From the IMG/VR virus record IMGVR_UViG_3300025131_009806, positions 1 to 58,364 of that record: 58,364 nt of DNA; one strand, written 5' to 3'. Position numbers and translations under genes: made by a program. This document shows, one piece after another, positions 37,675 to 58,364 of this stretch (within the stretch, counting starts at the first letter, position 1; each line of letters starts with the position of its first letter). The notes below the pieces were generated by a model. That model was not told the DNA's origin and ran no database searches. It saw nothing but the letters and a program-made list of their open reading frames with translations. Source of the stretch: a virus (Duplodnaviria > Caudoviricetes).

Positions 37675-37699
37675 ACATCAAAATAAGTAAGAATATAAT
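37670..37699 (+). promoter_or_regulatory. Putative promoter
   Basis: TATAAA-N18-TATAAT. Confidence 0.4.
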
Positions 37700-37704
37700 A
37701 GAGC

Positions 37705-38490: not shown

Positions 38491-39242
38491 AAAAGAAACA
38501 TATATTTATTGGAGGACACCATAATAGTTGTACCACAATAGTACGTAAGCTCATTCTTTGCAAAGATTACATGGAAGCCGATAGATATCCTGACTATATG
38601 GGAAAATATTTTCATAGTGAATTTTTTAAACGATGGCATGCTAAGAAAGATAATTTTGAATTTTTTGAAAATAAAGTTCGAAGAGACACAGGTGGCCTCG
38701 AATACTGGGTTATCAAGCACAACCACTTGATGTTGATGATACCTGAGCTTAAAAAGGCATTTCCAGGCTCAGTATTTATAATGTGTATCAGAAATCCAAT
38801 TGATCAATTACGAAAACCACAAATGAATTATGAGTGGTACGGAAATGCTAGAAGTTGGGATCCACCGCTTGTAGAAAAATTTGGACTCTATGGGGAGTGG
38901 GTAGATGAGGGAATAAAAAATGCTGACCATATTATTCGACTTGAAGATCTCTTATTTGATACAAAAGATACAATTAAAAAGCTATATCAATTTTTAAAAT
39001 GTGATGATAGAGTAGATGATGATATTTTACAAATGATTCTTCCTCCATCCTCAACTGTTTTAGATGGGCATAGACCCGCTAAGAGCACTGGGAGTGACCC
39101 ATTAAGCATCCTAAAGGTCACTGAGGCAGAATTAGATAATTACATTATAGATTCGTCTGGGACAATACTGCGTGATGCACTCAAAGAGTATTGTATCCGT
39201 TTAGGCTATGATATGCCCGAATACTTGAAAAGAAAAAAATAA
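38487..39242 (+). CDS. Sulfotransferase-like (P-loop/PAPS fold) protein
   Basis: IFIGGHHNSCTT (5'-PSB-like), WVIK, FPGSVFIMCIRNPID (3'-PB-like), IRLEDL. Confidence 0.68.
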   Translation: MKKKHIFIGGHHNSCTTIVRKLILCKDYMEADRYPDYMGKYFHSEFFKRWHAKKDNFEFFENKVRRDTGGLEYWVIKHNHLMLMIPELKKAFPGSVFIMCIRNPIDQLRKPQMNYEWYGNARSWDPPLVEKFGLYGEWVDEGIKNADHIIRLEDLLFDTKDTIKKLYQFLKCDDRVDDDILQMILPPSSTVLDGHRPAKSTGSDPLSILKVTEAELDNYIIDSSGTILRDALKEYCIRLGYDMPEYLKRKK

Positions 39243-39288: not shown

Positions 39289-40128
39289 ATGAGTAAAATA
39301 GAAAAAACTTTCCCAACAGGAAAGCAACATGTATCATTTTCTGAGATCAAATGCTGGAAAGAGTGCACATGGCGACATAAGCTAGTTCATATAGACAAAG
39401 TTGATATTTTTGAGCCCTCTCCTTACTTAGATTTTGGAACTGCCGTTCACTCTGGATGTGAGGTCCTTTTAGAAAAGAATGATCTTGATTATGATAGCCT
39501 CTTAAAAGATATTGTGGATGCTTGGGATAAGCATGGGTTTGGAAAGCCAGAGTGGTATGAAAAAATGCCTGGCTGGTACAAGCATGTTCCTGTAGAAGAG
39601 TGGTGTACATGGGCATCTAATATGTGGAGCGAGATTCCAAAATTTTTAGATGAGACGTTTCCAGGCTGGGAGTTTGTATCTGCTGAGGAAATGTTATATG
39701 AGCCTGTTGAAAATAAGGATATTAACTTCAAAGGATACATAGACGGGATTATAAGAGTTCCTAATAAAGCTGGCAATGGGTACAAGTACTGGATCATTGA
39801 CTGGAAAACAGCGCAGTCTTATGGGTGGAGAAGGTCTAAAAAGCAAGATATTTTAATGACTGCACAGTTAATGCTATATAAGCACTTTTGGTCTAAGAAG
39901 CACTCTGTTGAACTTAAAGACATAAGATGTGGTTTTATATTATTAAAGCGCGGCGGTAAGCCAGGCAAGGTCTGTGAGCTTGTGACAGTATCTGTGGGAC
40001 CTAAGTCTCTAGAAAAAGCCCTAAAGATAATGAATAATATGATAACATCTGTTAGAAGAAAAATGTTTCTAAAGAATAGAGATTCTTGCAGGTACTGTCA
40101 GTTTAAAGACACAGAACACTGTACGTAA
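39289..40128 (+). CDS. PD-(D/E)XK RecB/Cas4-like exonuclease with a probable Fe-S cluster
   Basis: SFSEI..WKEC, FGTAVH, GYIDG, IIDWKT, QLMLY, C-terminal CRYCQFKDTEHC. Confidence 0.88.
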   Translation: MSKIEKTFPTGKQHVSFSEIKCWKECTWRHKLVHIDKVDIFEPSPYLDFGTAVHSGCEVLLEKNDLDYDSLLKDIVDAWDKHGFGKPEWYEKMPGWYKHVPVEEWCTWASNMWSEIPKFLDETFPGWEFVSAEEMLYEPVENKDINFKGYIDGIIRVPNKAGNGYKYWIIDWKTAQSYGWRRSKKQDILMTAQLMLYKHFWSKKHSVELKDIRCGFILLKRGGKPGKVCELVTVSVGPKSLEKALKIMNNMITSVRRKMFLKNRDSCRYCQFKDTEHCT

Positions 40129-40174: not shown

Positions 40175-41425
40175 ATGACCCAAAAGAAAAAAATTCTTGT
40201 TCTATCTGATCATGCACTATCAACTTCTGGAGTTGGCTGTCAGACAAGACACTTAATTAACGGACTGTTAAATAAAGATGGACACTGGACATTTCGACAG
40301 TTTGGTGCGGCTCTCAAGCACATAGATTATGAAACTGTTGTTGTCAATGAAGATTTTATCATCAAGCCCATTGATGGATTTGGAGATAGAAATCTTATAA
40401 GGATCACTTTAGCAGCTGAGAAGCCTGACATACTATTAATCTTCACTGATCCTAGATTTTTTATATGGTTGTTTGAGATGGAAGACGAAATACACCAGAT
40501 TTGTCCAATTGTTTGGTGGCATGTGTGGGATAACTATCCTTATCCAAAATTTAATGAATCTCTCTATGAGGCAACTGACTCAATTAACTGTCACTCTCAC
40601 CTGACATATGAAATGGTTAGCAACGTTTTTCCAGAAAAGACAAACTTCATACCTCACACACTGCCCGACGAGATCTTTCACCCCATCAGTGAAAAAGAGA
40701 AGAGAGAATTTAAGGGTAATGTTCTAGGTGAATCTAGAAAAGATCACTTCATTGCGTTTTGGGTTAATAGAAATGCAAAGAGAAAAAGACCAAATGATGT
40801 ACTTTTTTCGTGGAAGCTATTTTTAGACATGCTAGAAGAAAATCATGGGCATAGAAATGCAACACTTATAATGCACACTGATCCCTATGATCAAGAGGGC
40901 CCAAATCTAATCACAACAGCTGAGATGTTTAAAATACATGAAAATGTATTTTTCTCAACAGATAGACTAGAATTTGAGAAAATGAATATACTTTACAATA
41001 TATCAGATGTGACATTAAATGTGAGTTATGCTGAAGGATTTGGTCTTTCTACACTAGAATCAATGCAGTCTGGGACACCTATAATTGCTGTTAAAACAGG
41101 TGGGCTAACTAGGCAGGTCGTTGATCACAGAGACGGAACAGAAAACGGTGTAGCCCTAGATGTCGAGTGTAAGACACTTGTGGGTTCACAACAGGTGCCT
41201 TACATATATGAGGACTACTCACGTCCAGAAAGTATAGCAGGTGCTATTTTAAAGATCTATAATCTTTCTCCCGAAGAATCAATAAGTCTATCTAACAAAG
41301 TAAGAGAATATGCATTAAGTGAATTCTCTCACCAAGACATGATAGATAAGTGGCATGATACACTTTTAGATGTGTCTGATAATTGGGAGAAGAGATATAA
41401 AAGATGGGAATATTTTTCTCTATAA
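40175..41425 (+). CDS. GT4 glycosyltransferase
   Basis: LSDHALSTSGVG, NRNAKRKR, EGFGLSTLESMQSGTPII. Confidence 0.9.
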   Translation: MTQKKKILVLSDHALSTSGVGCQTRHLINGLLNKDGHWTFRQFGAALKHIDYETVVVNEDFIIKPIDGFGDRNLIRITLAAEKPDILLIFTDPRFFIWLFEMEDEIHQICPIVWWHVWDNYPYPKFNESLYEATDSINCHSHLTYEMVSNVFPEKTNFIPHTLPDEIFHPISEKEKREFKGNVLGESRKDHFIAFWVNRNAKRKRPNDVLFSWKLFLDMLEENHGHRNATLIMHTDPYDQEGPNLITTAEMFKIHENVFFSTDRLEFEKMNILYNISDVTLNVSYAEGFGLSTLESMQSGTPIIAVKTGGLTRQVVDHRDGTENGVALDVECKTLVGSQQVPYIYEDYSRPESIAGAILKIYNLSPEESISLSNKVREYALSEFSHQDMIDKWHDTLLDVSDNWEKRYKRWEYFSL

Positions 41426-41443: not shown

Positions 41444-42631
41444 ATGATTGAAAATTCTTTTGTAGTAAAGAAAAAGGTAATAATCAGAGCTCCGCTGCTA
41501 TCAATAAGTGGCTATGGAGTTCATTCAAGACAGATATTCAAGTGGCTTGAAACAAGAGATGACCTTGATGTTCGAACACAGATAGTCCAGTGGGGAAATA
41601 CAAGCTGGATGATTAATTCAGAATTTGAATCAGGAGCCGTTGGTAAGATAATGAGCTTATCATCAAATCATGATTCTCAGCCTGACATATCATTTCAGGT
41701 TCAGTTGCCTGACGAGTGGGATACTGAACTAGCAAAGCTCAATATAGGAATTTCTGCTGTTGTTGAAACTGATAGGTGTAACCCTGCATGGATAGAAAAT
41801 ATAAATAAGATGGATCACGTCATTGTTCCGTCTGAGCACATAAAAAATACTATTTTATCGACAGGAACCGTCACAACACCGTTACACGTGATACCAGAGT
41901 GGTACATAGAAGAAATAGATAAAGACAGTGTAGCCGAATTAGACATAGAGGTTAGTACATCATTTAACTTTATATCAATTGCTCAATTTACTGGAAATGA
42001 TCCTGAAAATGATAGAAAAAATCTCTTCTATACAGTTAAGTGGTTTTGTGAGGCATTTAAAGGTGACGAGGATGTGGGACTCATACTAAAAATAAATCAC
42101 GGAAGAGGAACCACAATTGATAGACACATAACAAGAAATAAAATGAGACAGCTTGTGTCTGAGGTGAGGGATGGAGAATTTCCAAAGATTCATATAATCC
42201 ACGGAAATTTATCATCTGAAGAGATGTCATCACTATACAGATTGCCAACTATCAAAGGCTTGATAAGTCTAACAAGAGGTGAGGGATTTGGCCTCCCTCT
42301 TCTTGAGGCAGCAGCGTCTGGAATTCCTGTCATCGCAACTAATTGGTCAGCTCATCTTGATTTTCTAAATCTTGGAAAATTTATACCTATTGACTATAGC
42401 ATGGTAGAAATACCAGAGTCTCGAATTGATAATAGAATATTTTTAAAGGGCATGTGCTGGGCTGAGCCAATTGAGGCTGATTTTAAAAAGAAGATTATTA
42501 AGCTGAGACATAAGCATGACATACCAAAGCGCTGGGCACTAGATCTGTCTAGTCGAGTGAGAGATATTTTTTGTTCAAAGTCTATAATTTCACAATATGA
42601 CAGCATGATAAATGCCATCTTAGAAGATTAA
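41444..42631 (+). CDS. GT4 glycosyltransferase
   Basis: SGYGVHSR, VIVPSEH, DRKN, RGEGFGLPLLEAAASGIPVIATNWS. Confidence 0.9.
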   Translation: MIENSFVVKKKVIIRAPLLSISGYGVHSRQIFKWLETRDDLDVRTQIVQWGNTSWMINSEFESGAVGKIMSLSSNHDSQPDISFQVQLPDEWDTELAKLNIGISAVVETDRCNPAWIENINKMDHVIVPSEHIKNTILSTGTVTTPLHVIPEWYIEEIDKDSVAELDIEVSTSFNFISIAQFTGNDPENDRKNLFYTVKWFCEAFKGDEDVGLILKINHGRGTTIDRHITRNKMRQLVSEVRDGEFPKIHIIHGNLSSEEMSSLYRLPTIKGLISLTRGEGFGLPLLEAAASGIPVIATNWSAHLDFLNLGKFIPIDYSMVEIPESRIDNRIFLKGMCWAEPIEADFKKKIIKLRHKHDIPKRWALDLSSRVRDIFCSKSIISQYDSMINAILED

Positions 42632-42964
42632 ATGCTTTCTCTTTCTGTCTTGACCTCTAGCTTATGCGTTTTTTTAACACTTATTCTATCTGCGTCTATT
42701 TATTTTAACATTAAGCATGCATTGTTGATAATAAAAATGCAAGAAGCAATAGAGGAATCTCTGGACATATTAGATAAAAAATATGAGAAAATAGATGCAA
42801 TTCTTAAAACTCCTGTTTTTTTTGATTCTATTGAAATAAGACAGGTCATAACTGAAATTAGATCATCTCGAGACTCTATACTCTATCTTGCTAATATTCT
42901 TGCTGCTGTTACACAGGATGAAAATTATGATGAACAGCCGGAGAAAGAAATTAATGAGAGGTAA
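42632..42964 (+). CDS. Small protein with an N-terminal transmembrane helix and a coiled coil
   Basis: Hydrophobic N-terminus (LCVFLTLILSASIYF) followed by a helical soluble part. Confidence 0.6.
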   Translation: MLSLSVLTSSLCVFLTLILSASIYFNIKHALLIIKMQEAIEESLDILDKKYEKIDAILKTPVFFDSIEIRQVITEIRSSRDSILYLANILAAVTQDENYDEQPEKEINER

Positions 42965-43682
42965 AAGAGTTAAGAGAGTTGGTAGAAAAAAGGGAAGCAA
43001 GAATCTTTATTTTAATAAAGATACACATGACGCAATAGTTCGATACCAGATAGAGACCGACACATCAGCTAGAGAAAAAATATATGTAAGTGAAATCTTG
43101 CCAGCATTTGATAAGTTGGCAGAAAATCTTATCTTTATTCATGGTTTTGCAAAAAATGCTGACTCTTATGAGTCACTAAAGAGTGACTGTGTCGCATTTC
43201 TATATGAAACTTTAGAAAAGTTTGACCCATCAAGGGGAACAAAAGCATTCTCTTATTTCAATGTAGTTGCAAAAAACTGGCTAATTATACAGAGTAAAAA
43301 GAGGACTAAGAGCAATCAGCGTCTCGTAAGTATTGATGATTCAACTCGCCTTAGTAGTCATGACGTAGAGAAAATTGAAAACTTTTCGGTATCTCCCCCT
43401 CAAGATTTTTTTATGATCAAGAAAGAATCTATAGCAGAGTTATTTTCTCTAATGGAGATAATAAGGCTAAGGCTTAAAAGTGAAAATGAGATAGCATGCA
43501 TGGATGCTATAATTACGCTATTTAAGAAAATAGATGATCTTGATCTTTTAAATAAGCGCGCAGTGTTTGTTTATATGAGAAGTCTTTCTAATTTAAATCC
43601 AAAACAATTATCAGTTGCAATGTCAACAATCAGAAAACACTACAGAGACCTAATTAAAGATGGGGAGTTTGATATATTTTAA
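42954..43682 (+). CDS. Phage late sigma factor (T4 gp55-like)
   Basis: Basic N-terminus, NLYF, KLAENLI, LEKFDPSRGTKAFSYFNVVAKN (sigma region 2-like); ATG at 42954 preferred. Confidence 0.65.
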   Translation: MRGKRVKRVGRKKGSKNLYFNKDTHDAIVRYQIETDTSAREKIYVSEILPAFDKLAENLIFIHGFAKNADSYESLKSDCVAFLYETLEKFDPSRGTKAFSYFNVVAKNWLIIQSKKRTKSNQRLVSIDDSTRLSSHDVEKIENFSVSPPQDFFMIKKESIAELFSLMEIIRLRLKSENEIACMDAIITLFKKIDDLDLLNKRAVFVYMRSLSNLNPKQLSVAMSTIRKHYRDLIKDGEFDIF

Positions 43683-46089: not shown

Positions 46090-46581
46090 GTGATGTCAGA
46101 AGAGCTCAGCTTTAAAAGTGTTGGAATCAAGTCTAACGATCCTGATCTATTTAGAGCAGTACAGATAAAGCCTGTCGGGATTAAGACACCGCTAGAGGTG
46201 GGCACTGGAAGATCAGGGATTTTTCAGATGCACTTTGATGTTGCTAATCAATTGATGGATAATCTTAGAAACCTAATACTAACAAATCATGGCGAGAGGC
46301 TTGGTGTCTATGACTACGGTGCAAATCTTCGACCTCTAACATTTGACGTGACAGCAAAAGATGACTGGGATGCAGAGGCGATGCTAAGGATTAATACAGC
46401 TGTGTCTAAGTTTATGCCACAAATGGATCTAGAGACATTTTCGTCGTCACTTTCTTCGAGAAGCGAATCAAACATAATTGGCGAGTGGCTAGCACATGTT
46501 AGACTAGTCTTAAAATTTAATATACCCATGCTTGGTGTCACAAATAGAACGATGGCAGTTGACCTGTGGTGCGTAGGATAA
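46090..46581 (+). CDS. Baseplate wedge subunit, gp25/GPW-like
   Basis: QLMDNLRNLILTNHGERL...DYGANLR, AVSKFMPQM. Confidence 0.85.
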   Translation: MMSEELSFKSVGIKSNDPDLFRAVQIKPVGIKTPLEVGTGRSGIFQMHFDVANQLMDNLRNLILTNHGERLGVYDYGANLRPLTFDVTAKDDWDAEAMLRINTAVSKFMPQMDLETFSSSLSSRSESNIIGEWLAHVRLVLKFNIPMLGVTNRTMAVDLWCVG

Positions 46582-46585: not shown

Positions 46586-48445
46586 ATGGCACAATCAAAA
46601 AAAATAAAAAATGTGAGATCTAACCAGAGAACATACCTTGCAAGAGATTTTGACTCTTTAAGGGCTGAGCTAACTCAATACGCAAAGATATATTTCAGTG
46701 ATCAGATGACAGACTTTTCTGAAAACGGTGTAGGGGGACTGCTCATTGAGATGGCAGCGTTTGTGGGTGATACACTATCTTATTACCTAGATCATCAATT
46801 TAATGAGTTAGACATACAGACTGCTGTTGAAAGTCAAAACATAGAGAAACTCATAAGAGCATCAGGTGTGAAAATAACTGGAGCATCTCCCGCAACTGCA
46901 ACTATAAATTTTTATCTAGAGGCTCCAGCAGCCTATTCAAATAATGAGTATGTTCCGGATGTAATAGCTCTTCCCATAGTCAAGGCGGGCACACTTTTAA
47001 CATCGACATCTGGTGTGCTTTTTGAGCTTGGAAAAGATATTAACTTTGCTGAAACTGATGCAGCTGGAAAGACTGTTGCAACATATCAGCAGATGAAGAC
47101 CTCAACTGATTCGTCTGGAAATATAGTACCAGTAACTTTTTCTGTCATGCTATCTGGAGAGTGTAAGTCTGGAATATTAAAGACTCAGTCATTTATAATT
47201 CCAGACACATTTTCTCCGTTCATGACAGTCATGCTCAATGATGTTGATGTGACCGAAATCATCTCAGTCAGAGACTCAGATGGAAATACTTATCACGAGG
47301 TTAGTGCTCTGACACAGGATGTAGTCTATAAGCGAGTATTAAATGTTGCTTCAGACAGTGATCTAGCACCTGAGAATCTAGAGCTTGTGCCTGCACCGTA
47401 TAGGTTTATTTCGACTATGAGTAGAAGATCAGGAAAAACAACAATTAGATTTGGTGGGGGCAGTGCTAGCTCTACAGATGATGATATCATTCCTGATCCT
47501 AGTGAAGTTGCTATCTCACTTTTTGGAGAGAGAAAGACATTTTCAAGATTCACAATAGATCCAAACTCACTTCTAGAGACAAGAACACTTGGAATTGCTC
47601 CCAGAAATACAACAATAACAGTAAAGTATAGGGCTGGCGGAGGTCTATCACATAATGTCCCAGCAGGATCAATTAATACTATTTCTACACTCTTTACACG
47701 GTTTTCATCAGGTGCTCCATCTAGCACGATTTCTTCAGTTAGATCCTCCATTGAGTGTTCAAATATAAACCCCTCAGCTGGAGGTGAGGCTCCATTGACG
47801 CTAAATGAGATGAGATCTACAGCACTAGCTTACAGAAATTCTCAAGCAAGAATTGTGACTAGAGAAGATCTTATTGCAAGAGTCTATGCAATGCCATCTA
47901 ACTTTGGAAGAGTTTTTAGAGTAGGAGTTCATACAAACCCAAATAATCCTCAAGCAGTGACAATGTGCATTATAAGCAGAAACTCAAGTGGAAATCTAGT
48001 CACCTCACCAGATGCTTTAAAACAAAGTCTGAGGCTATATATCAATCAATACAGGCTGATATCAGATGCAATTGATATATGTGAGGCACGAGTAATTAAT
48101 GTGGGAATAGATTACGGTGTTGTAATAGACGAAGTATCTAACAAAAATCTAACAATACAAAATATCAATAAGTCATTACAAGACTATATGGTAATTGAAA
48201 ATTTTCAAATTGATCAACCAATAATCACATCTGATCTTGTATCTTTAATAATAAACACTGTAGGTGTTGTGTCACTGGTGAACTTTAAAGTTAAAAACAC
48301 ATCTGGAGTAGTTGACGGCAGAAGGTATAGTCAGGAATTATTTTCTATTCCGTACAATACAGACAGGGGTATTATCATGCCCACTCCAGGTTCAATTTTT
48401 GAGTTAAAATATCCTAAAGATGATATTGTTGGTTTTGCGAGATAA
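46586..48445 (+). CDS. Baseplate wedge subunit, T4 gp6/J-like
   Basis: YLARDFDSLRAEL, LIEMAAFVGDTLSYYLDHQFNE, IRFGGG, VKYRAGGG..HNV, SQARIVTREDL, FELKYP. Confidence 0.88.
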   Translation: MAQSKKIKNVRSNQRTYLARDFDSLRAELTQYAKIYFSDQMTDFSENGVGGLLIEMAAFVGDTLSYYLDHQFNELDIQTAVESQNIEKLIRASGVKITGASPATATINFYLEAPAAYSNNEYVPDVIALPIVKAGTLLTSTSGVLFELGKDINFAETDAAGKTVATYQQMKTSTDSSGNIVPVTFSVMLSGECKSGILKTQSFIIPDTFSPFMTVMLNDVDVTEIISVRDSDGNTYHEVSALTQDVVYKRVLNVASDSDLAPENLELVPAPYRFISTMSRRSGKTTIRFGGGSASSTDDDIIPDPSEVAISLFGERKTFSRFTIDPNSLLETRTLGIAPRNTTITVKYRAGGGLSHNVPAGSINTISTLFTRFSSGAPSSTISSVRSSIECSNINPSAGGEAPLTLNEMRSTALAYRNSQARIVTREDLIARVYAMPSNFGRVFRVGVHTNPNNPQAVTMCIISRNSSGNLVTSPDALKQSLRLYINQYRLISDAIDICEARVINVGIDYGVVIDEVSNKNLTIQNINKSLQDYMVIENFQIDQPIITSDLVSLIINTVGVVSLVNFKVKNTSGVVDGRRYSQELFSIPYNTDRGIIMPTPGSIFELKYPKDDIVGFAR

Positions 48446-48447: not shown

Positions 48448-50028
48448 ATGTATAGAATATTAACTGCTAGTAAAGATACATACATTACAGATAAAATCAT
48501 TGACAACAGTTTCAGAGCAACTGATGCAAATGTAGGGCAAGCTGCAACTCTAGATTTATTTAAGCTCTACGCTGAATCAACATCAGGATCAGTCACATCT
48601 CCTATGGAGATAAGTCGGGCACTGATAAAATTCGACCTGGATCCTCTGAGAAGATTGACAGGCTCTTTTCTAGACATCAGCCACTCTTCTTTTAGGTGCA
48701 CATTAAATCTGTCTGATGTGTATGGTGGCCAAACTTGTCCTTCAAATTTTAAACTAATTGTTTTCCCACTTTCCCAGTCATTTGATGAGGGAATGGGTAG
48801 AGATATTGTTAGCTTTTCTGATTTAGATTCTTGCAACTTCATAACAGCTTCTACTAATGGCGGAACAGCAGTTCCGTGGTTTGTTTCAGGAGCTAATAAA
48901 CAGGGCCTTCTACATTCAGACAATATTGATATTATATCTAGCGGAAATCTTCTTGATGGAAATGGAGTTGTTAACTTGTGGAGACAAAAAACTTTTTCAA
49001 CAGGGGAGGAAAATCTATCTGTTGATGTCACAACAATTATTTCTGCAACTCTTGCAAATAGAATGCCAGACCATGGATTCAGAATCTCATATTCAGGATC
49101 TCAAGAAACTGACACTATCACTAGATTTGTTAAGAGATTTGGTTCTCGAAATAATACATCATTTTTTAATAGACCTCAGCTTATTGTTAAATTTAATGAT
49201 TCAATTCAGGACAATCATAGCTCATTTCTTTTTAATGTATCTGGATCACTTTTCTTAAATAATTTTCACAGAGGCAGGTACGCAAATATTTTAACAGGAA
49301 CCCGAGGAAAGATGCATGGTGTTTCTGGAAGTAATTCTCTACTTCTCAGGCTCACATCAGGGTCAATTGGAGCTTCAGGGACATTTTTTCAAAAGATAAT
49401 AACAGCATCCCAGCATCAGATAGGACAAAACTATATTACAGGAATTTATTCTGCATCTTTTTGTGTATCACAATTCACAGGAACAAATCCGCCAAATCGA
49501 GGAGAAATTAGATTCAATAGTGCCCTAGCTAATGAGATTAAAAATGCAGGATCTGCAACATTCACACAGATCTGGTCATCTTTAGATCAAACTGTTGCAT
49601 TTTTAACAGGAAGCTTAGTTATTAATACTGTCAATAGAAACTCATTTAGCAATCGAGCAAAGAGGCTTTTAACATCTATAACAAATATGAAAGATGAGTT
49701 TGGAATAGATGATAAATACAGATTTAGAGTTTTTGTAGAAGATATAGACAGGCCAGTCAGATATAAAAAAGTACCATTTGAAACTAAAAGCTCAATCTTT
49801 GATAGAATGTTTTATCAGATAAAAGACTTCAAGTCAGGAAAAATTGTTATTCCATTTGATACAACATATAACTCTACACTTCTTTCAACTGATAAGGATG
49901 GAATGTATTTTGATATTTATATGGACACGCTTTTTAAGGGAACCGTGTTCACTGTAGATTTTCTTATCAAGGCAGAGGGGTCAGATCTAATTTTTACTGA
50001 TGTTGCAGCAAAGTTTAGAGTTGTCTGA
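48448..50028 (+). CDS. Virion structural protein (baseplate-associated)
   Basis: ASKDTYI, SRALIKFDL, RPQLIVKFND (DNRLRE-like features); position in the baseplate operon. Confidence 0.55.
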   Translation: MYRILTASKDTYITDKIIDNSFRATDANVGQAATLDLFKLYAESTSGSVTSPMEISRALIKFDLDPLRRLTGSFLDISHSSFRCTLNLSDVYGGQTCPSNFKLIVFPLSQSFDEGMGRDIVSFSDLDSCNFITASTNGGTAVPWFVSGANKQGLLHSDNIDIISSGNLLDGNGVVNLWRQKTFSTGEENLSVDVTTIISATLANRMPDHGFRISYSGSQETDTITRFVKRFGSRNNTSFFNRPQLIVKFNDSIQDNHSSFLFNVSGSLFLNNFHRGRYANILTGTRGKMHGVSGSNSLLLRLTSGSIGASGTFFQKIITASQHQIGQNYITGIYSASFCVSQFTGTNPPNRGEIRFNSALANEIKNAGSATFTQIWSSLDQTVAFLTGSLVINTVNRNSFSNRAKRLLTSITNMKDEFGIDDKYRFRVFVEDIDRPVRYKKVPFETKSSIFDRMFYQIKDFKSGKIVIPFDTTYNSTLLSTDKDGMYFDIYMDTLFKGTVFTVDFLIKAEGSDLIFTDVAAKFRVV

Positions 50029-50036
50029 GGTGGTCG

Positions 50037-53000
50037 GTGTCGAATTTTAAAATAAACTCAAGACCTAGACTATTCAACCCATCAGTTGTCCGTGGTCAGT
50101 TCAAAGTTGCTAAGCCTTCAAAAATATCTCTATCTCAGCTAGGAGATACAAATTTTCAAAGCACATCATCTTTTAGATATGACACTGCTCGCTCACCCCT
50201 CAAGTCTACGCAAGAGATCTCGCTAGACTGGTCAAGATTTGAAAATCACACATTTTTTAACTCAGCAGAATCAAAAGTCAACATAGCTTTTCAGAGAATT
50301 ATAAATGAATATCCCTTTGATGGAACTTTGAAAGAGGTAGAGGCATTTGAAGACTCTCTCACCGGATATGAAAAATATATCTTGGATATATTTCCTAAGT
50401 CTGCTGGATTTCTAAATTTTTCTGGAACATCAGAAAGTGAAAATCCAGCATCTGGATATGGTGAAAAATTAGGAACATACATATCAGTTCAAGACAGAGC
50501 GGGAGTTCTATTTCCAGATTTTTCTAAGAATAGAACAGCAGAATCAATTCTTGATTTCGGAAAAGATAGCTTTTCTATCGAGCTAGAGCTATATCCGGCC
50601 CCCAGAGAAAATGAAAATCAAATAATCTGTCAAAAGAGATCAAATTCTAATGACTCAATAACTGTTGCGCTATCAGAATCTTCTTCGACATCTAAGTGTG
50701 ATCTCATATTTTCAGTGACATCAGGATCTGCAACATTATTTGCAAGCTCTTCAATAGAAAAGGGAAGATTCAATCATATCTGTACAACATTTGACAGATC
50801 TCCCGGTCAAGGTATCTTAAAGATATTTGTAAGTGAATCTCTCAGGGTGACATCTTCAATGGCTTTTGAAATGGGAAGTCTTTCTTTTGGCAGAGCAAAT
50901 TTTATAATAGGCTCTGGTTCTTCTGTAAAGACCCCAGAGTGGAGCACTCCCCACGGAGAAAAAGAATTTATTCCCAAGGTAACATTTTCTGGATCGATGG
51001 ATGAGGTTCGAGTTTTTCACTCTACTAGAAGTGATATTGATCAAAAAAGAGATTCACGCCGTGGAATATATGCCAGCAATGACCTCAAGCTATATTTTAA
51101 ATTTAATGAACCCACTGGATCTTTTAATCTGAAGTCTGTTGTCCTAGATAGTTCTGGAAACTCTCTTCATAGTGAGATTAAAAATTTTGAGATAGGGCTA
51201 AGAATTTCAGGATCTATTTCTAACCCTCTGTCTTCTGAAAATCTAAAGAGAAATCCTATTCTCTTTCCCTCCTACTATAAAATTTCTAACCTCAATAGAA
51301 AACTTTTAGTATCTGCTAGCTTATATGATAGAGAAAATCCAAATTTAATCACTAGTTTGATTCCTATGCACTTCTTACTAGAGGGACAGTATAATCAAGG
51401 ATTAGATAGTGAGAAGGGTGACATAGGCTCACCTATTTCTGGAAAATCTATTCCTGGATCTGCTAGGATCGGGTCAGCTCAATACCTAACAGCATTTCTT
51501 CTCATATGGGCTAAGTTTTATGATGAGATGAAGATATTTGTTGATCATTTTTCACGAGTGCTCTCAGTTGACTATGATGATAATCTTTCAATCACTGATA
51601 AATTTTTACCGTTTGTTGCGGATTATTATGGATTTACGTTGCCGTCACTTTTTTCAAATGTTGATCCAGTACAGTTTATTAACGGTGATGACATACAAAA
51701 GACATATTCTCAATCAACTAATTCTATAAAGTATGTTCAAAGTCAAATCTGGAAAAGAATTCTAATAAACCTTAATGATATAACTACGTCGAAAGGAACA
51801 ACTTACAGCATACGGTCTCTTTTAAGATCAGCAGGAATTAATCCAGATAATATATTCAATATTCGAGAATATGGTGGTCCAACTAAAAGATCTCTAGCGG
51901 GTCGTAGGCAGACCAAGTCTGAAACTGCAACAAGCCTTGATTTCTCAGGTAGCCTTAACCCATCTTCTTTCACTCCAGATACCCAGGGATTTTCTAGTGA
52001 TATTCCACACCTGGTGTCACCATTTCTATCTGCCTCTAGGGTAGAGGTGGGATATCCAGAACAGGTTGGTACGATGGTCTCTAAAGTTAGATATCCGCCA
52101 CATGGAATATCTAGTGATCCCAGTGATGGGCTATTAACATCAGGATCATTTACATATGAGGCAATCTATCAGTTTGAAAAAAATAAGGATCATCCCGGAG
52201 AACAAAGTCTTGTACGATTCCATGTAACTGGTACTTCATCTCCGTCTAATGTAAACGGTGTCCTGGCAAACGTGACTGTTGTTTCTGGAGCTCAGAATTC
52301 AATGACATCTAGTGGTGATGATTTAAAACTATTTGTCAGGTCTGACTCTAATTCTTCAACTTCACCAACACTAGCACTTATATTGACCGGACTTAATATT
52401 TTTGATGGAAACCTGTGGAATGTATCTTTTGGACGAACACGGTCTGATGATAGACCCGAAACAGATTCACAAACATATCTTACTAAGAGGTCATCAGCTG
52501 TTCAGTCTTCTTCTTATTTTTTAAGATGTGCAAGACAATCTTACGGAAGCGTGAGTCAAATATTTATGACATCGTCATATTTTATGTCTGCACCAGTTGT
52601 AGCATCATCAGATGATTCATTTCAAAAGATCTCGACAGCATATAATGTTTCTGGTGCATTTATTGCAATAGGCTCTCAGTCACTAGGCGGAGCAGCTTCT
52701 GGTCGCTTTCTTAATTCTGTAGATGATTCTGGCCAATATAGAAATGCCCTATTTACTAAATTTTCAGGACAGGTGTCTCAAATAAGATTTTGGTCTAACG
52801 CCCTCAGTGAAAGATCATGGATAGAACATGTCCGAAGCTTCAAGTCACTCGGAGTAGAAAATCCTCTTATTAATTTTAACTTTAATGATTTCTCAACAGG
52901 TTCATTTGGGAGACTCCGTGTCAATGCATCAACAGATCAGAGAATTTTAACTGCAGGATCAGATAGAAAGATAAGAATATTTGATTTCTCACAAAACGGA

Positions 53001-53639
53001 TATCACCTTAGCGGCTCTGGATTTGAAAAAAATACAGATGCAATAGGATCTGAAACATTTTATTTTAGTTATCTATCACCTGCATTTGACATCTCTCAGA
53101 CAGACAATAAGGTCAGAGTGAGAAGTTACCAAGATCCAGAGCTGATATCTCTCAGTGAATATGCAACATCTACACCTACATATGAGGTGAGAAAAAGTGA
53201 GGAACCTGATGACGATGCAAGATTTAGAATAGAGATGTCATCAGTTAGTGGCCTTAATGAGGATATCATGAGAATATTTGGCTCGCTAGACTTTTTTGAT
53301 GATGCTCTCGGAAGGCCTAATCTTTTATTTGATGAGTTCTACCCTGACCTCGACCAGATCAGAAAGATCTACTTTAATAGACTCAAAGAGAAGCCTGACT
53401 TACAAATCTTTTTTGACATGTTTAAATGGTTCAGTTCAGCATATGGTGATCTTTTAGGCCAGCTTATACCAAAGAGAACAAAATTTTTAGGCGTAAACTT
53501 TGTAATAGAGTCGCATGTAATAGAAAGAAGTAAGTTTAGATACTTATTTGATGAAATTTATCTAAAAGCACTCTTCAGAGACAATGATAGGGGAAATCTA
53601 TTACTTTCTCAGATTGTTGGACACTTATGTAAATTTTAG
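50037..53639 (+). CDS. Large baseplate/tail protein with LamG domain(s) and a gp7/tail-I-like segment
   Basis: FSIELEL, FNHICTTFD, FSGSMDEVRVFH, LYFKFNE; FLPFVADYYG...KGTTYSIRSLL..AGI; FSGQVSQIRFWS. Confidence 0.7.
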   Translation: MSNFKINSRPRLFNPSVVRGQFKVAKPSKISLSQLGDTNFQSTSSFRYDTARSPLKSTQEISLDWSRFENHTFFNSAESKVNIAFQRIINEYPFDGTLKEVEAFEDSLTGYEKYILDIFPKSAGFLNFSGTSESENPASGYGEKLGTYISVQDRAGVLFPDFSKNRTAESILDFGKDSFSIELELYPAPRENENQIICQKRSNSNDSITVALSESSSTSKCDLIFSVTSGSATLFASSSIEKGRFNHICTTFDRSPGQGILKIFVSESLRVTSSMAFEMGSLSFGRANFIIGSGSSVKTPEWSTPHGEKEFIPKVTFSGSMDEVRVFHSTRSDIDQKRDSRRGIYASNDLKLYFKFNEPTGSFNLKSVVLDSSGNSLHSEIKNFEIGLRISGSISNPLSSENLKRNPILFPSYYKISNLNRKLLVSASLYDRENPNLITSLIPMHFLLEGQYNQGLDSEKGDIGSPISGKSIPGSARIGSAQYLTAFLLIWAKFYDEMKIFVDHFSRVLSVDYDDNLSITDKFLPFVADYYGFTLPSLFSNVDPVQFINGDDIQKTYSQSTNSIKYVQSQIWKRILINLNDITTSKGTTYSIRSLLRSAGINPDNIFNIREYGGPTKRSLAGRRQTKSETATSLDFSGSLNPSSFTPDTQGFSSDIPHLVSPFLSASRVEVGYPEQVGTMVSKVRYPPHGISSDPSDGLLTSGSFTYEAIYQFEKNKDHPGEQSLVRFHVTGTSSPSNVNGVLANVTVVSGAQNSMTSSGDDLKLFVRSDSNSSTSPTLALILTGLNIFDGNLWNVSFGRTRSDDRPETDSQTYLTKRSSAVQSSSYFLRCARQSYGSVSQIFMTSSYFMSAPVVASSDDSFQKISTAYNVSGAFIAIGSQSLGGAASGRFLNSVDDSGQYRNALFTKFSGQVSQIRFWSNALSERSWIEHVRSFKSLGVENPLINFNFNDFSTGSFGRLRVNASTDQRILTAGSDRKIRIFDFSQNGYHLSGSGFEKNTDAIGSETFYFSYLSPAFDISQTDNKVRVRSYQDPELISLSEYATSTPTYEVRKSEEPDDDARFRIEMSSVSGLNEDIMRIFGSLDFFDDALGRPNLLFDEFYPDLDQIRKIYFNRLKEKPDLQIFFDMFKWFSSAYGDLLGQLIPKRTKFLGVNFVIESHVIERSKFRYLFDEIYLKALFRDNDRGNLLLSQIVGHLCKF

Positions 53640-53647
53640 GATCAGAT

Positions 53648-54571
53648 ATGTCAATAAAACCATTTGTAGATAGACCAAAAGTTGATATAGGCCAGGATGT
53701 CACTATTCTGCCTGCCTCTGGCGGGATGAATACTAGTGAGATAGATAGATTTAGGCAGGGAGTCAGCATGCGGCACTGGCGTGACTTTAAGTGCTCTCTA
53801 GTTCCAATGATCACGTCTAAGGGGTTTATACACAATGCTAGTGCAAGGATGGATTTTTCGCTCAACAAGTCAGACTACGGTCAGCCAAAACTATTTGAAG
53901 ATCTAGGAAACAACGGTGTATTCAATGGAATCTTCTCTCCTTTTGATGACATAGTAGGTGTATTCAGCGGAAAAGACTTCATAGAGGATCCAGGGACTCA
54001 GATGTATCCTAATGTTATGGTCAGCCCAAATTGGCTAGATCCTGCTATGATGGACGGAGTATTAGACCCACTTCAGATAAGACATCAGATGAGCAATACT
54101 AATGCTGAAGGACCGTTTTCAGCTCATGGCATAAGAGGTGCCCTGATGCCGAATATTGGAAATGAGATACTTGGCAGGGGAACCTTTATATGGTCTGTTA
54201 TTCCATTTGAACCAGAAGCTAAGAATCCACCGTATTATGACTCACAGGATGTACCTATGGAAATTACGTCTCCGACAGGAGATAAATTTGTATTATCATT
54301 TCCTGGATTTGACTATCCTGAGGAGACACAAGTCGAGCCATTTGATGACACTGTTCTCTCTGAGAAGATAGAAAGTCAGCAATTTAATATACTTAACACA
54401 CTATCTGGCTCTGTATTAGGAGCCGGCGAGTTCGGAATATATCAGAAGTCTGCAACAGTCGGGTTTATCTATAGGGACGGAAACTATATCATAAAGAAAG
54501 GCCAGATAGAGACTGGTGTGAAACGAGTCATGGGAACTGACTCTATAGCATTTGGAGGGTTCCTTAAGTAA
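53648..54571 (+). CDS. Hypothetical virion-associated protein
   Basis: Coupled within the structural operon; ends GTDSIAFGGFLK. Confidence 0.55.
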   Translation: MSIKPFVDRPKVDIGQDVTILPASGGMNTSEIDRFRQGVSMRHWRDFKCSLVPMITSKGFIHNASARMDFSLNKSDYGQPKLFEDLGNNGVFNGIFSPFDDIVGVFSGKDFIEDPGTQMYPNVMVSPNWLDPAMMDGVLDPLQIRHQMSNTNAEGPFSAHGIRGALMPNIGNEILGRGTFIWSVIPFEPEAKNPPYYDSQDVPMEITSPTGDKFVLSFPGFDYPEETQVEPFDDTVLSEKIESQQFNILNTLSGSVLGAGEFGIYQKSATVGFIYRDGNYIIKKGQIETGVKRVMGTDSIAFGGFLK

Positions 54572-57500
54572 TGCCACGATTACAATTAGCCTCATATGAC
54601 CTAAGTGATACGTTTCAAGACTCGAGTGGAAATGTCTACTCATACCATAGCGGACAGGATCTAAAAGTCTGGATTCGTCCCGCTCCTGACGAACCAAAAG
54701 ATCTGAGTAGAAATAATCTATCTTGCGAGTACGATGATGATCCGCCTATCTCTGATGCAACAATTGGTAGTAAGTCTTATCCTGTGATAGGTGATCAGGC
54801 CAGCAGCCCTGGTGTTATAGAAGTCTCGAACTCGACCGGAGACCTCTCATTTACCAGCCTGCCAAGCGCGGGAACGCCAACGACATCTTCAGATAGACCA
54901 TTTTCAATAAGTATGTGGGTGAAAGTAGATTCGCCGCACGCTTCGGGCACAGGATATATAGCCTGGAAGCCAAGCTTATCATACGGAGAGTATGGGCTCA
55001 TCATAGCCACCGACGACTCGCTGCGATTCCAGCTCTACGACGACGATAACGATGCCTCCCAGTTCGTGCTCACCACCGGGGAAATCCCATTAGGTCAGTG
55101 GAATCACATAGTTGTAACATATGACGGTCGAGGGGGAACCGGTGCAGCGACCGTCACCGCTGCCCTGGGCCTGAAAATCTATATGAATGGATCAGACTAC
55201 TCTGGGTCCCGGACCTACGCCGGCAGCTACAAAGGAATGCAGCCTAATTGGGGTGCTGATCTAGTCATACGAAATTTCGCGCCCGCGAACTCGGCTGTTT
55301 TTAAGGGTGAGATTGCAGAGATCGCTCTGTGGAATAGAGAGCTACCTGAAGTAGATATTCTCACAATATATAACGCAACACGAAACGGTGCCTATGATCT
55401 ATTTACCGGATATCTCAATAATCCAGTTAGAACAATCGTAAGAAGCAGAGACAATGCGACAGGATCATACCCATCAGTTCTAAGAACCACTGGATTTAAG
55501 CAGAGCACACCAGATCCATTTGATGATAACAGGACAGTTGTATTTCACACGATAAAAAAGTTTAGAAAGTTGGGCGCTAATAGGCAGGCGGTCTTCACAG
55601 ATCCGCTCATGGATGTCCACTATCCGGTCATGCTCACAAAGGTAGATCACGACAAGTACTATAGGAACTGGGTATCAACACCTAACACATCTGGGTCAAT
55701 CATCGCATCAGGTAGTGTGGGACCATTCATATCTCTACAGGGACTAGAGCCATCAATAAATCAGCACAGAGACTTCACACCGTTTAATGAGAGCAGGGTC
55801 TACATAGACCCAGGAAGCACATTTTACATGACAGGAACGAAGAGGACAACCTATCCTGGCTTCACATCTCCACTAGAGGACAAGGTCCAGATAGTGATAC
55901 CCCTTCCAAATGTAAGTGATAAGATCTGTAGCAGGTGGAATAGTGACTTCGGCGGTGATGCGGTTGCCGGCACAAACTTTATTGAGCCAGGTGTGACAGA
56001 TTCAACAGATGTAGAGGTCACACCGACATCACAGTATAGTGGATTTAGCTACTACAACTGGATTAATGGAAGATGGGAGGACATAGGCCTCTATGATCCT
56101 GCGACTGGGATAGCACGCAAGACACACATGTTCTATCTAGCTGCTGAGAAAAGACAGGGCAGCACTTATCTATATCCAGAGTTTCTTCCATATGCGAGTG
56201 ATGGGAAGCACAAGCAGCCGTGGCACATCCAGCCACCGTCTTATCAGTTTAAGATGTCACATCACACAATGTACATGACAAGGACATATAATGACTTAAT
56301 CATGACAGGTGCCTATGGAAAGATAGGCGCGCCCACAATTGCAGCCGCCGCTCCGCAGCATCCTAGGTATCACGCAACTTCATCACAAGCCCTGTCTCTC
56401 TCTAGTTACATAAAGCATCCATTCCTGCTTGAGAAGGCAGTTATTGAGATACCGGTCATCGTCAGAAGAAAGAATGGTGCGTCATACCCACCTGGGGGTT
56501 CATATAAGGTCGACGGCGGTGACAGAGACATAGATAATTACACATTTTTCATGTACAGACAGCAGAGAAGACCGTCATTTAAGATCAATATGCCGACTAG
56601 TCCCTCTGATCAGCAGAACTATATAGAAAGAGATAGCGCAGCAGATGTAAGCGGTAGCACAAGGTTTCTAGTCATGAGTGCTTCAGCTGCTTTTTATAAT
56701 AGCCCCTCGATAAGATCGTCAGCCCTACAAAGTGAAATATCATCTCTAGGGCTACCACACACACCATCCTTTGAATATGACTTTAACCTAGAGGTAGACA
56801 GTGACAGCATCCCGAGCGAAGGTGCTGAAGCAGCATTCACAGGATCTATTCGTCTAGAGTTTATTCCAGCAGTTGCAAATAGAGGAGACTGGGGAGGATC
56901 CCGATTCGCAATCAGGAGCGGTACAGTTCCGGGTGAAGCCACCAAATTCCCCAGCACGTCGTGGCAGCCGATCTCAGCATATACCTCAGCGGTCATACAA
57001 GATTTCTGGCCAGGCGGCACCACAGACACCTCCCAGATGCAATTACACTCGAGCTCCTGGGCATACATGCAAGCTGCAGGAGAATGGCGAGTAGCAGGGC
57101 CCATCCCGACAACGAATGATGCCGGGCCTTATTCTCTATCTCCCTTCGAGGCTAGGTGGGGGAATCTAATTCAGGTGACCCAGCACTCGACAGAGAATAC
57201 AGACCCTGAAATTATTATCTCAGAACCGGGTGCTAACAGACCGTTCACGGGTCGTGCAGGCTTCAGCACTGATGAGCGGTCCACAGGCTCATTGGGCTAT
57301 TACCCCGAGACTGGGGCTGGTGCTGGCGACAACTTCCCGAGGACAGGGTACATATGCCGAGGAATCAAGGTTGATCAGATATCTCCAAATACACCCTCTC
57401 CATACCTGCTACTTCCTGAGGATGAGATAGTCATTGGGATCGATGCAAGCATATCATCTACGATGGTGTCTGGGACACAGGACCAGCTTGGATTTGATAA

Positions 57501-58364
57501 GAGTAACCATGACATGACCCACGCGGCCGGAAAGACCAGGTGCAATGCTCTTAACATCATGTCTGGATCATTCATGAAGATCATGGCTGGAGAGGCAAAG
57601 CTCACGCTCTTTGGCTCGCTCATAAAGGAGGACAAGGAGCACATGTCGAGCCTCGACCAGAACCTCACGTCAGATGCCATTCACCATGACATCCATCAGG
57701 TCGGTCCGCTTGATCAGTACATGATAGGGTCAGCTAAAGACTATCGAGGTACTTACATCGATAGATACATAACTGGATCAATGAGCGTTCGAGGGAGACC
57801 TCTCGCTGACGGAAGAGCTGGAACACGTGGTGTCAGCATGCTTTTTTCGTCAGAGGATGATATCGTGCCCAATTTCAAGGGTCCCGTTTCAAGACTGTCA
57901 AGGGGAGGTCTCAATTACCTAACTTCACAAAATTTATCTGGAAGTCTTCTTCGAGGTGTCAAGCTAGTTGACAAGTCTGAGAGATTTTATGACACACTTC
58001 TTCCAGACTATGTTGAGTATGCTAGTCTTCACAACGTCGACAGCGACGGTGACAAGACCGCGCTCGGAGTCTTCTATGTATCTAATAATTTATCTAGAGG
58101 AGTAACTAAGGTAAACAGACAGGGACATACGGTAATATATGCGTTTAGTAGCATGTGGGAGGGACTCTGGGGTAGGCCAGTTATCGAAGACACCGGTCAA
58201 GATCCTTATACCGCACAACCGACCCTAAGATCATATGATGATGGGAGGATCCTCCGGTACAGATCAGGCAGAGAGCTTCCATATGCCACCAACCCTACAA
58301 GAATGTCTTCAGATAGATTTATATCTATAGGTGCGAGATATGATGATGCGATCTGGGAGGCACC
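54571..58364 (+). CDS. Large LamG/concanavalin-A-like domain virion protein, 3'-truncated (absent from the ORF track)
   Basis: TAATG-coupled ATG at 54571. Reads MPRLQLASYDLSD...PFSISMWVK...QWNHIVVTYDG...LKIYMNG...FKGEIAEIALWNREL; no in-frame stop seen to the window end. Confidence 0.8.
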   Translation, partial: MPRLQLASYDLSDTFQDSSGNVYSYHSGQDLKVWIRPAPDEPKDLSRNNLSCEYDDDPPISDATIGSKSYPVIGDQASSPGVIEVSNSTGDLSFTSLPSAGTPTTSSDRPFSISMWVKVDSPHASGTGYIAWKPSLSYGEYGLIIATDDSLRFQLYDDDNDASQFVLTTGEIPLGQWNHIVVTYDGRGGTGAATVTAALGLKIYMNGSDYSGSRTYAGSYKGMQPNWGADLVIRNFAPANSAVFKGEIAEIALWNRELPEVDILTIYNATRNGAYDLFTGYLNNPVRTIVRSRDNATGSYPSVLRTTGFKQSTPDPFDDNRTVVFHTIKKFRKLGANRQAVFTDPLMDVHYPVMLTKVDHDKYYRNWVSTPNTSGSIIASGSVGPFISLQGLEPSINQHRDFTPFNESRVYIDPGSTFYMTGTKRTTYPGFTSPLEDKVQIVIPLPNVSDKICSRWNSDFGGDAVAGTNFIEPGVTDSTDVEVTPTSQYSGFSYYNWINGRWEDIGLYDPATGIARKTHMFYLAAEKRQGSTYLYPEFLPYASDGKHKQPWHIQPPSYQFKMSHHTMYMTRTYNDLIMTGAYGKIGAPTIAAAAPQHPRYHATSSQALSLSSYIKHPFLLEKAVIEIPVIVRRKNGASYPPGGSYKVDGGDRDIDNYTFFMYRQQRRPSFKINMPTSPSDQQNYIERDSAADVSGSTRFLVMSASAAFYNSPSIRSSALQSEISSLGLPHTPSFEYDFNLEVDSDSIPSEGAEAAFTGSIRLEFIPAVANRGDWGGSRFAIRSGTVPGEATKFPSTSWQPISAYTSAVIQDFWPGGTTDTSQMQLHSSSWAYMQAAGEWRVAGPIPTTNDAGPYSLSPFEARWGNLIQVTQHSTENTDPEIIISEPGANRPFTGRAGFSTDERSTGSLGYYPETGAGAGDNFPRTGYICRGIKVDQISPNTPSPYLLLPEDEIVIGIDASISSTMVSGTQDQLGFDKSNHDMTHAAGKTRCNALNIMSGSFMKIMAGEAKLTLFGSLIKEDKEHMSSLDQNLTSDAIHHDIHQVGPLDQYMIGSAKDYRGTYIDRYITGSMSVRGRPLADGRAGTRGVSMLFSSEDDIVPNFKGPVSRLSRGGLNYLTSQNLSGSLLRGVKLVDKSERFYDTLLPDYVEYASLHNVDSDGDKTALGVFYVSNNLSRGVTKVNRQGHTVIYAFSSMWEGLWGRPVIEDTGQDPYTAQPTLRSYDDGRILRYRSGRELPYATNPTRMSSDRFISIGARYDDAIWEA

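Follow-up and report, generated by a model that had tools for sequence, protein, structure and literature searches.

An [ST]-G-[ST] motif enriched in the outer tail proteins of a large aquatic phage lineage

Why should phage tail proteins that have no detectable homology to one another share a short pattern of serine, threonine and glycine, and is the pattern connected with the sugar genes that lie among them? The question is raised by a 58,364-base virus contig (IMG/VR record IMGVR_UViG_3300025131_009806, analysed over its whole length and called the window below), in which every sizeable open reading frame (ORF) is on the + strand. An earlier note on this DNA had pointed to tripeptides of the form [ST][GA][ST] in unrelated virion proteins, and had proposed that they are acceptor sites for O-linked sugars attached by the adjacent glycosylation cluster. 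We find that the excess of the motif is real, specific and conserved, and that its core is narrower than first described. As to its function, we tentatively favour a structural or assembly role.

The motif and its excess in distal tail proteins

When [ST][GA][ST] is counted in each ORF and compared with 2000 composition-preserving single-residue shuffles, five structural proteins stand well above expectation.

48448..50028, +, p526, an outer baseplate protein of 526 amino acids (aa) with jelly-roll/carbohydrate-binding-module (CBM)-like and immunoglobulin (Ig)-like beta-sandwiches; 16 sites (10 Gly form, 6 Ala form) against 2.6 expected, z 8.7
50037..53639, +, p1200, a large protein of the baseplate that contains a LamG/pentraxin-like domain; 15 sites, 11 of them of the Gly form, against 5.3, z 4.3
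54571..58362, +, terminal ORF, open at the 3′ end, 1264 aa seen, LamG domain; 15 sites against 6.5, z 3.5
1..4026, +, fibre-like ORF, open at the 5′ end; 27 sites against 11.5, z 4.8; 16 of them in three recurring repeat-unit types
4026..6278, +, second fibre-like ORF; 20 sites against 7.7, z 4.6; 12 of them in the repeat-unit types of fibre 1..4026

The observation is thus borne out, and more strongly than it had been stated. All of the tetrapeptides cited in support of it were found, and 12 of the 16 p526 sites had been listed; ten of the 16 are clustered in residues 265-390. Scarcity elsewhere had been noted for the enzymes, a gp25-like protein and a supposed sigma factor, and the counts agree: 39 enzymes and other proteins are flat (10 observed, 10.3 expected), the gp25-like ORF has 0 sites against 0.4, and the "sigma factor" at 42888..43682, which matches Sigma70_r2 only at E 0.085, has 0 against 0.3. 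Among the 46 other ORFs only 38487..39242 stands out, in tiny numbers (2 against 0.1). It encodes a sulfotransferase-like enzyme, the only non-structural protein with a nominal excess, which is probably due to chance.

Of the eight arrangements of the two residue classes, [ST][GA][ST] alone is enriched in all five proteins. The excess persists in shuffles made inside blocks of 30 and of 12 residues (p <= 0.002 each), so local composition is not its cause. Codons at the motif sites vary, which rules out a DNA-level repeat or codon bias and argues for selection at the protein level. For the fibres a reservation is needed, since 28 of their 47 sites fall in three recurring repeat units; these sites are not independent, and the fibre counts are inflated by duplication. 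An artefact of composition or low complexity is rejected for p526, p1200 and the terminal ORF, and holds in part for the fibres.

Variants of the motif, pooled over p526, p1200 and the terminal ORF, show that the real motif is Phi-[ST]-G-[ST]-Phi, where Phi is a hydrophobic residue. The glycine form occurs 35 times against 8.2 expected (z 9.3), and SGS is the top exact tripeptide (18 against 3.5), whereas the alanine form is marginal (11 against 6.0, z 2.1); of the [GA] centre originally described, only the glycine half is firm. Glycine with a hydroxyl residue on one side only, [ST]G[^ST], is at expectation (34 against 35.2), and none of the other central residues (S, T, N, D, P, V/I/L or charged) gives enrichment. 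Given the dipeptide margins, the class with both flanks still stands at 35 against 21.1 (odds ratio 3.7, p 1.7e-5), and the same test gives an odds ratio of 0.77 in the 46 other proteins. That the motif usually follows a hydrophobic residue also proved correct (59 of 93 sites, background 31%). Hydrophobics are enriched at +1 too, and in the pooled proteins Phi[ST]G[ST] occurs 21 times against 2.6 and Phi[ST]G[ST]Phi 10 times against 0.8.

Conservation and distribution in the lineage

Nothing among the deposited sequences is close to the window, and p526, the fibre and the terminal ORF have no DNA or protein match among deposited phages; a baseplate protein is 31-33% identical to counterparts in Flavobacterium phage immuto, Microcystis phage Mel-JY01 and an uncultured 484-kb phage. 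At least 580 relatives of p526 are in IMG/VR, where a profile search gave close relatives only. In our family survey of 123 loci, the p526 homologues include 104 that are distinct and full-length, and [ST]G[ST] exceeds z 3 in 98 of these (median 8 sites against 1.5), as it does in 64 of 65 p1200 homologues; the latter count comprises 64 of 64 with at least 900 aa plus the copy from a motif-poor clade described below, which de-duplication had dropped and which was restored. By gene family, the ratio of observed to expected sites is 5.1 for p526, 4.8 for p1200, 3.2 for the terminal-ORF family (z>3 in 31 of 42) and 2.4 for unknown downstream proteins, and 26 of 77 non-homologous downstream tail proteins of relatives have z>3. 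Families without excess are p572 (1.0), the gp6-like protein (0.65) and two GT4 proteins (0.6-0.8). The gp6-like protein (46586-48445, with 104 homologues) is depleted in [ST]G[ST], at 71 observed against 109.2 expected, the opposite of its neighbours.

In both immuto and Mel-JY01 the excess is seen in the fibre proteins and in those resembling p526 and p1200 (z 3-7); motif enrichment is a trait of the lineage. It is kept over a family GC (guanine plus cytosine) range of 29-52%, which rules out a GC effect. Outside the lineage, none of 37 T4 proteins is at z>3 or even reaches z 2.5 (gp6-12, wac and gp34-37 included), and the counts at z>3 are 0 of 11 for P2 and 0 of 8 for Corndog; lambda has a mild excess only (4 of 10 proteins at z 2.5-2.9) and Che8 a modest one (3 of 14, namely gp6, gp15 and gp21). 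With the excess absent or weak in these five phages, a general trait of phage tail proteins is ruled out.

Within the lineage the sites are fixed in position. Conserved motif triplets number 14 in the p526 family (36 distinct homologues) and 15 in the p1200 family, with the canonical residue class kept in 72-73% and 84-87% of cells, respectively, and several p1200 columns are near invariant at about 40% identity (for example, S in 26, G in 26 and S in 27 of 27). Where a residue is replaced, it is mostly by Ser in the central position and by Ala in a flanking one, so that size is conserved, and interchange of Ser and Thr is strict. Polar or charged residues often take the place of those at the flanks, and the flank positions are located in or near strands and loops. 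The classic turn signature, with D/N for the flanks and N/D for Gly, is not seen among the replacements. Once the conserved columns are masked, the remaining instances number 49 against 38.7, near enough to expectation to indicate that the excess is inherited and not continually regenerated.

In hhalign profile-profile comparisons of 61-residue family segments around each site, none of 403 motif-segment pairs reached a probability of at least 50 (control pairs, 0 of 113). The approximately 29 conserved sites of p526 and p1200 are therefore mutually independent, one repeated domain carrying the motif in these two proteins is ruled out, and the motif is indeed common to proteins without detectable homology, as had been claimed. 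Together these comparisons show the enrichment to be independent of composition, GC and domain duplication, and restricted to distal tail proteins.

The sugar island and its conserved glycosyltransferases

Along the window, the two fibre-like ORFs are followed by a 640-aa GT2 protein, about 31 kb of sugar-nucleotide and glycosyltransferase (GT) genes, a nuclease, two GT4-type transferases, four small or unknown proteins, the gp25-like and gp6/Baseplate_J-like proteins, and then p526, p1200, p307 and the 3′-open 1264-aa ORF. The features beyond the five already listed are these.

6344..8266, +, 640-aa protein, an N-terminal part of about 330 aa plus a GT2 domain (Pfam GT2, residues 337-433); conserved outer boundary of the sugar island
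8251..39242, +, variable sugar island (annotated by Pfam and NCBIfam), all soluble
39289..40128, +, PD-(D/E)XK nuclease that invariably adjoins the GT4 pair and occurs in Flavobacterium phage immuto as well
40175..41425, +, GT4a, a generic GT4 enzyme with a GT-B fold, one of the glycosyltransferases at the core of the lineage
41444..42631, +, GT4b, a further core glycosyltransferase, which the motif-poor clade retains
46090..46581, +, gp25-like wedge protein of the baseplate, without motif sites (PF04965 at E 0.0011, under the cut-off)
46586..48445, +, gp6/Baseplate_J-like wedge protein; 2 motif sites against 2.9
53648..54571, +, p307, neighbouring structural protein without clear enrichment (2 against 0.6); family ratio 2.0, z>3 in 3 of 21

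The gp25-like and gp6/J-like proteins stand side by side, as the corresponding wedge proteins do in the T4-type contractile-tail baseplate. Their Pfam matches are just below the curated cut-offs (Baseplate_J E 2.3e-4 for the gp6/J-like protein, which also matches phrog_219 at 5.9e-12). The 58-kb contig does not include capsid or tube genes.

The 51 window proteins were scanned with Pfam. GT matches (GT2, GT4/GT1 and GT29-like) fall on 11 of them, eight of which reach the gathering score, with three (6344.., 8984.. and 21972..) at or below it. Alongside GT2, GT4/GT1 and GT29-like transferases the island encodes a GDP-mannose dehydratase, carbamoyl-, methyl- and sulfotransferases and a B12/radical-SAM enzyme. 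In NCBIfam it shows a nonulosonic-acid pathway of the pseudaminic/legionaminic type, with PseB-like (1.2e-80), PseC-like (1.7e-59), NeuB (3.9e-74)/PseI (2.3e-51) and PseF-like (1.8e-9) matches, all of them below the equivalog cut-offs. A 197-aa protein (16464-17057) matches, in two stretches, the GT29 family of eukaryote-type sialyltransferases (PF00777, E 6.8e-20), an unusual family for a phage; it lies beside the pathway genes, which are NeuB (18416..), a PseF-like/methyltransferase fusion (17120..), the PseC-like gene (19285..) and the PseB-like gene at 35131... In none of the window proteins was there more than one candidate membrane segment, which argues that the pathway is soluble, without a flippase, polymerase or lipid-carrier transferase of its own. 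The sole convincing membrane-anchor candidate in the window is a 110-aa protein (42632-42964) that starts with a strongly hydrophobic stretch of 19 residues (mean Kyte-Doolittle 2.22) and is conserved beside GT4b in relatives. GC is 42-49% in the fibre genes (1-8000) and the terminal ORF (54000-58364) against 31-38% in the sugar island (8000-44000), so the island may have a different origin or be under different constraints.

The island sits inside the tail module, on the same strand, between the fibre and baseplate genes, and does so likewise in the closest relative checked. Its gene content differs between relatives while the motif stays constant. The 640-aa GT2 protein marks its far edge in three of three relatives examined (49-55% identity), and in the closest of the three it is preceded by fibre genes; at the near edge the nuclease, GT4a and GT4b, followed by the baseplate genes, are syntenic in relatives. 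In four of five long relatives the GT4 pair has additional GT2, GT1 and epimerase genes no more than about 25 kb away, the contig of the fifth ending too early to display the island neighbourhood. The island is a variable interior between three conserved glycosyltransferases. Both GT4a and GT4b occur in 44 of 44 loci with at least 8 kb of upstream sequence, and among these 44 no GT-free relative was found. Immuto, Mel-JY01 and LR756508 failed as GT-free controls, because all carry glycosyltransferases, orthologues of the GT4 pair among them: Mel-JY01 has both, LR756508 at least GT4a, and immuto the same nuclease-GT4a-GT4b trio elsewhere in its genome (about 48.5-51.7 kb). The three genes (39289-42631) thus travel together even away from baseplate genes, which hints at a joint role, possibly in DNA modification. 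Motif and enzyme are both present throughout the lineage, and both are absent in T4 and P2.

The two GT4 proteins are generic. Solved relatives of GT4a and GT4b align to the nucleotide-sugar region only, and neither protein matches a known protein-O-GT family above threshold: the GtfA and SdgA models match only at E of about 3e-3, far below cut-off (for the GtfA equivalog TIGR02918, E 0.003 and 0.0025, 16-17 bits against a cut-off of 574.6 bits). The N-terminal part of the 640-aa protein has no Pfam family at E<=1, only viral hypothetical clusters.

One clade of relatives (L041, L042, L045 and the metagenome contig L064) offers a natural experiment, since it is poor in the motif. Its p526 has 1 site against 1.1 expected, its p1200 has 2 against 2.7 (against 1.6 in the count of p1200 homologues above), and two downstream proteins have 0 against 1.2 and 0 against 0.9. 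GT4b is retained at the syntenic place (in L064 at 33% identity, E 3.6e-54, cut by the contig end), and this speaks against a simple link between enzyme and sequon. IMG/VR yielded no further contigs of the clade; the one metagenome contig found ends inside GT4b.

What the motif may do

The reading that we consider most likely, while rating it somewhat short of an even chance, is that the motif is intrinsic to the beta-rich modules of the outer baseplate and fibres (jelly-roll/LamG, CBM-like and Ig-like sandwiches and fibre repeats), as an element of their structure or assembly. It is a triplet of very small residues between hydrophobic strand residues. For its physical role we infer that the glycine would leave the backbone freer or let neighbouring chains pack closely, and that the hydroxyls, both on the same side, could cap main-chain hydrogen bonds or make subunit contacts in the assembled baseplate. 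The sugar island would then serve another target, be it DNA, the host surface or other sites on the virion. Sites that are fixed and inherited, a remainder near expectation, hydrophobic flanks and the conservation of size all support a structural role, as do the constancy of the motif despite a varying island, the restriction of enrichment to distal tail proteins and the retention of GT4b by the motif-poor clade. Support also comes from the predicted model of p1200, in which the sites are non-helical and cap strand ends: helix accounts for 25% of the protein but for only 4 of the 45 motif residues, and a strand end is capped by 8 of the 11 Gly-form sites, against 30% of all positions (p 0.004). 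Antibody light-chain variable domains have an F-S-G-S strand in an unmodified beta-sandwich, so a purely structural role for a hydrophobic-Ser-Gly-Ser sequence is possible; the antibody has one such site per domain, whereas here a 4-5-fold excess extends over many unrelated positions in one phage lineage.

For p526 the AF2 model is better (pLDDT 81.8, pTM 0.81) and displays a CBM-like jelly-roll and Ig-like sandwiches; Foldseek matches it to 8wab (TMt 0.67-0.69) and 7vbo (0.61), and poorly to many single-chain variable fragment (scFv) chains (TMt 0.25-0.30). In it most Gly forms occupy loops or the edges of strands, and each of the six Ala forms is inside a regular element. Fibre and p1200 have no sequence relatives among solved structures. 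The sole PDB match of the second fibre ORF (4026-6278) is spurious, being given by a run of at least eight prolines at residues ~80-100.

Other observations weigh against a structural role. The p1200 model, with its LamG/pentraxin fold matches, is of moderate quality (pLDDT 64.3). Motif residues of p526 occupy no single context (22 strand, 20 coil and 6 helix, against 220, 270 and 36 overall), and strand-end capping, at 6 of 10, is close to its 54% background. Turn-type D/N replacements are not enriched, nor is the amphipathic pattern [ST][VIL][ST] (19 against 21.4 in the three pooled proteins). In T4 and P2 the baseplate and fibres are built without the motif, and p526 and p1200 themselves exist without it in the L042/L064 clade. 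In that clade, moreover, the triplets have been lost preferentially, in both p526 and p1200: triplet Gly columns were kept in 10 of 29 cases against 37 of 52 other conserved Gly (p 0.0021), and triplet Ser/Thr columns in 18 of 58 against 41 of 69 (p 0.0023), figures that reflect a single evolutionary event on the longest branch of the family and an alignment that is imperfect at about 30% identity. The GT4b of the clade keeps its E-x7-E region and is changed at 8 of 48 positions that are invariant elsewhere; for four neighbouring proteins the figure is 7 of 115 (p 0.041). A concerted, preferential loss together with a divergent GT4b fits the disappearance of a requirement that lies outside the proteins themselves.

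Such a requirement could be glycosylation. The triplet might be an acceptor, or part of a recognition surface, for O-glycosylation of the outer tail proteins in the cytoplasm by phage enzymes, with GT4a, GT4b and the 640-aa GT2 protein adding the first sugars and the variable island elaborating the glycan, nonulosonic acid included, as in flagellin glycosylation. We regard this as unlikely, but as the leading alternative. The location of the island within the tail module, between fibre and baseplate genes and on their strand, is in its favour, although the GT pair is linked more tightly to the nuclease than to the tail genes, which fits DNA glycosylation. Three glycosyltransferases are conserved while the island interior varies, and the motif is conserved regardless of that variation. 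A PseB/PseC/NeuB/PseF-like pathway is present in an island that has no polytopic membrane protein; GT4a and GT4b themselves are generic, and no Maf, FlmG or BAHT-type enzyme was found in the Pfam scan of the 51 proteins. The motif is confined to peripheral virion proteins, with strict Ser/Thr interchange, yet turnover of its sites is low. One clade lost it in two proteins at once and has an unusually divergent GT4b, but that clade keeps the enzyme with its E-x7-E region. The mycobacteriophages provide a precedent: in the passages of PMC12619734, PMC12363180 and PMC11256854 that cite Freeman et al. 2023, virion proteins of Che8, Corndog and Myrna are reported to be glycosylated, and phage-encoded glycosyltransferases, which the window also has, to decorate them. 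The four C-termini reported there as targets end ...TGS, ...DGS, ...VGS and ...GDS, a Gly-Ser context in which the last residue is always Ser and Gly stands one or two residues before. They belong to capsid and tail-tube proteins (Che8, record L066, 5051-5872 and 7613-8422; Corndog, record L068, 548-1780 and 4317-5132), so the reported glycans are on C-terminal tails, whereas the candidate sites here are internal, about 15 per protein, and in the baseplate and fibres. Nor do the glycosylated mycobacteriophage proteins have a comparable internal enrichment, Corndog being without it and Che8 gp6, gp15 and gp21 modest.

Three bacterial systems offer partial parallels. Flagellin O-glycosylation by FlmG or Maf with pseudaminic or legionaminic acid resembles what is proposed here in its soluble pathway with a NeuB-type nonulosonic-acid synthase, in its many Ser/Thr sites (here candidates) on a self-assembling extracellular structure, and in the modular design of FlmG (596 aa), a GT with an N-terminal substrate-binding part that recalls the N-terminal part and GT domain of the 640-aa protein. 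FlmG differs in having TPR repeats and a GT-B fold, where in the 640-aa protein no TPR is detectable and the transferase domain is GT2 (GT-A), and flagellin acceptors are reported to be without a linear consensus (PMC7591256). Adjacent pairs of GT4-fold proteins are also found in GtfA/GtfB, which attach O-GlcNAc to serine-rich repeat adhesins. Their substrates carry Ser-small-Ser repeats, but these are long low-complexity repeats there and folded beta-domains here. In autotransporter heptosylation by TibC/AAH (BAHT), as described in PMC4358343, a cytoplasmic enzyme modifies many serines in a repetitive beta-structure; the modified serines precede small residues (Ser-Gly-Gly, Ser-Ala-Ala) and are presented when the local strand loops out. 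Unlike in the motif here, a hydroxyl residue need not stand on both sides of Gly. No GT9/BAHT-type enzyme appeared in the Pfam scan. None of the closest precedents, in mycobacteriophages, flagellin or autotransporters, uses this motif, and our literature searches turned up no account of a phage acceptor motif of the S-G-S type, nor of virions decorated by way of a nonulosonic-acid pathway of the phage.

The outside requirement could be of another kind, and we think it improbable that the triplet serves some other shared partner or surface function: a distal-tail assembly chaperone, a different Ser/Thr modification, or flat hydroxyl-rich faces that bind host glycans. The concerted loss in p526 and p1200 of one clade, with two downstream proteins unenriched, suggests a requirement that acts across the genome and can disappear; enrichment extends to many downstream tail proteins of relatives that are not homologous, and p526 and p1200 have folds of carbohydrate-binding type. 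No candidate partner gene was identified, however, and a receptor-binding face would be expected to vary with the host, whereas the sites are conserved over the whole GC range of the family and in both Flavobacterium and Microcystis phages. That the whole pattern is an artefact of Ser/Thr/Gly-rich composition, low complexity, internal repeats or DNA-level bias seems to us very improbable indeed: the five proteins are rich in Ser, Thr and Gly, and most fibre sites are in repeats, but global and block shuffles and the single enriched arrangement reject it, and the excess holds under dipeptide margins, with varied codons, at low and high GC and in non-homologous segments.

In the fuller proposal, the lineage would attach O-linked sugars to its outer baseplate and fibres, each protein being modified at about 15 conserved Phi-[ST]-G-[ST]-Phi positions; three conserved soluble glycosyltransferases would start the glycan, and the hypervariable island, with its nonulosonic-acid pathway, would diversify it. 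We consider this doubtful, slightly more so than the general case for an acceptor. If it were true, phage virion glycosylation would have its first linear acceptor motif, and actinobacteriophages would no longer be the only case. Virion glycosylation would then extend beyond mycobacteriophages to abundant environmental phages, with a predictive sequence rule, and the sugar islands of tail modules would find an explanation as a means of varying the surface of the phage itself. Should the motif be structural, it would supply a compact conserved signature for recognising otherwise unannotatable outer-baseplate and fibre modules of a very common aquatic lineage. The question is directly testable in two cultured relatives, immuto and Mel-JY01, which have the same enrichment in homologous proteins.

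The lineage consists of abundant, mostly uncultured, large aquatic myoviruses, with its cultured relatives on Flavobacterium and Microcystis. A 2025 paper (PMC12619734) describes "moraphages", large aquatic phages that have four core GT orthogroups and hosts among the Bacteroidota. Records of relatives of the window (L026, L008 and L035) run up to 324 kb at 86% estimated completeness, with others of 160-162 kb at 45-58%, and given these sizes the window probably comes from a jumbo phage.

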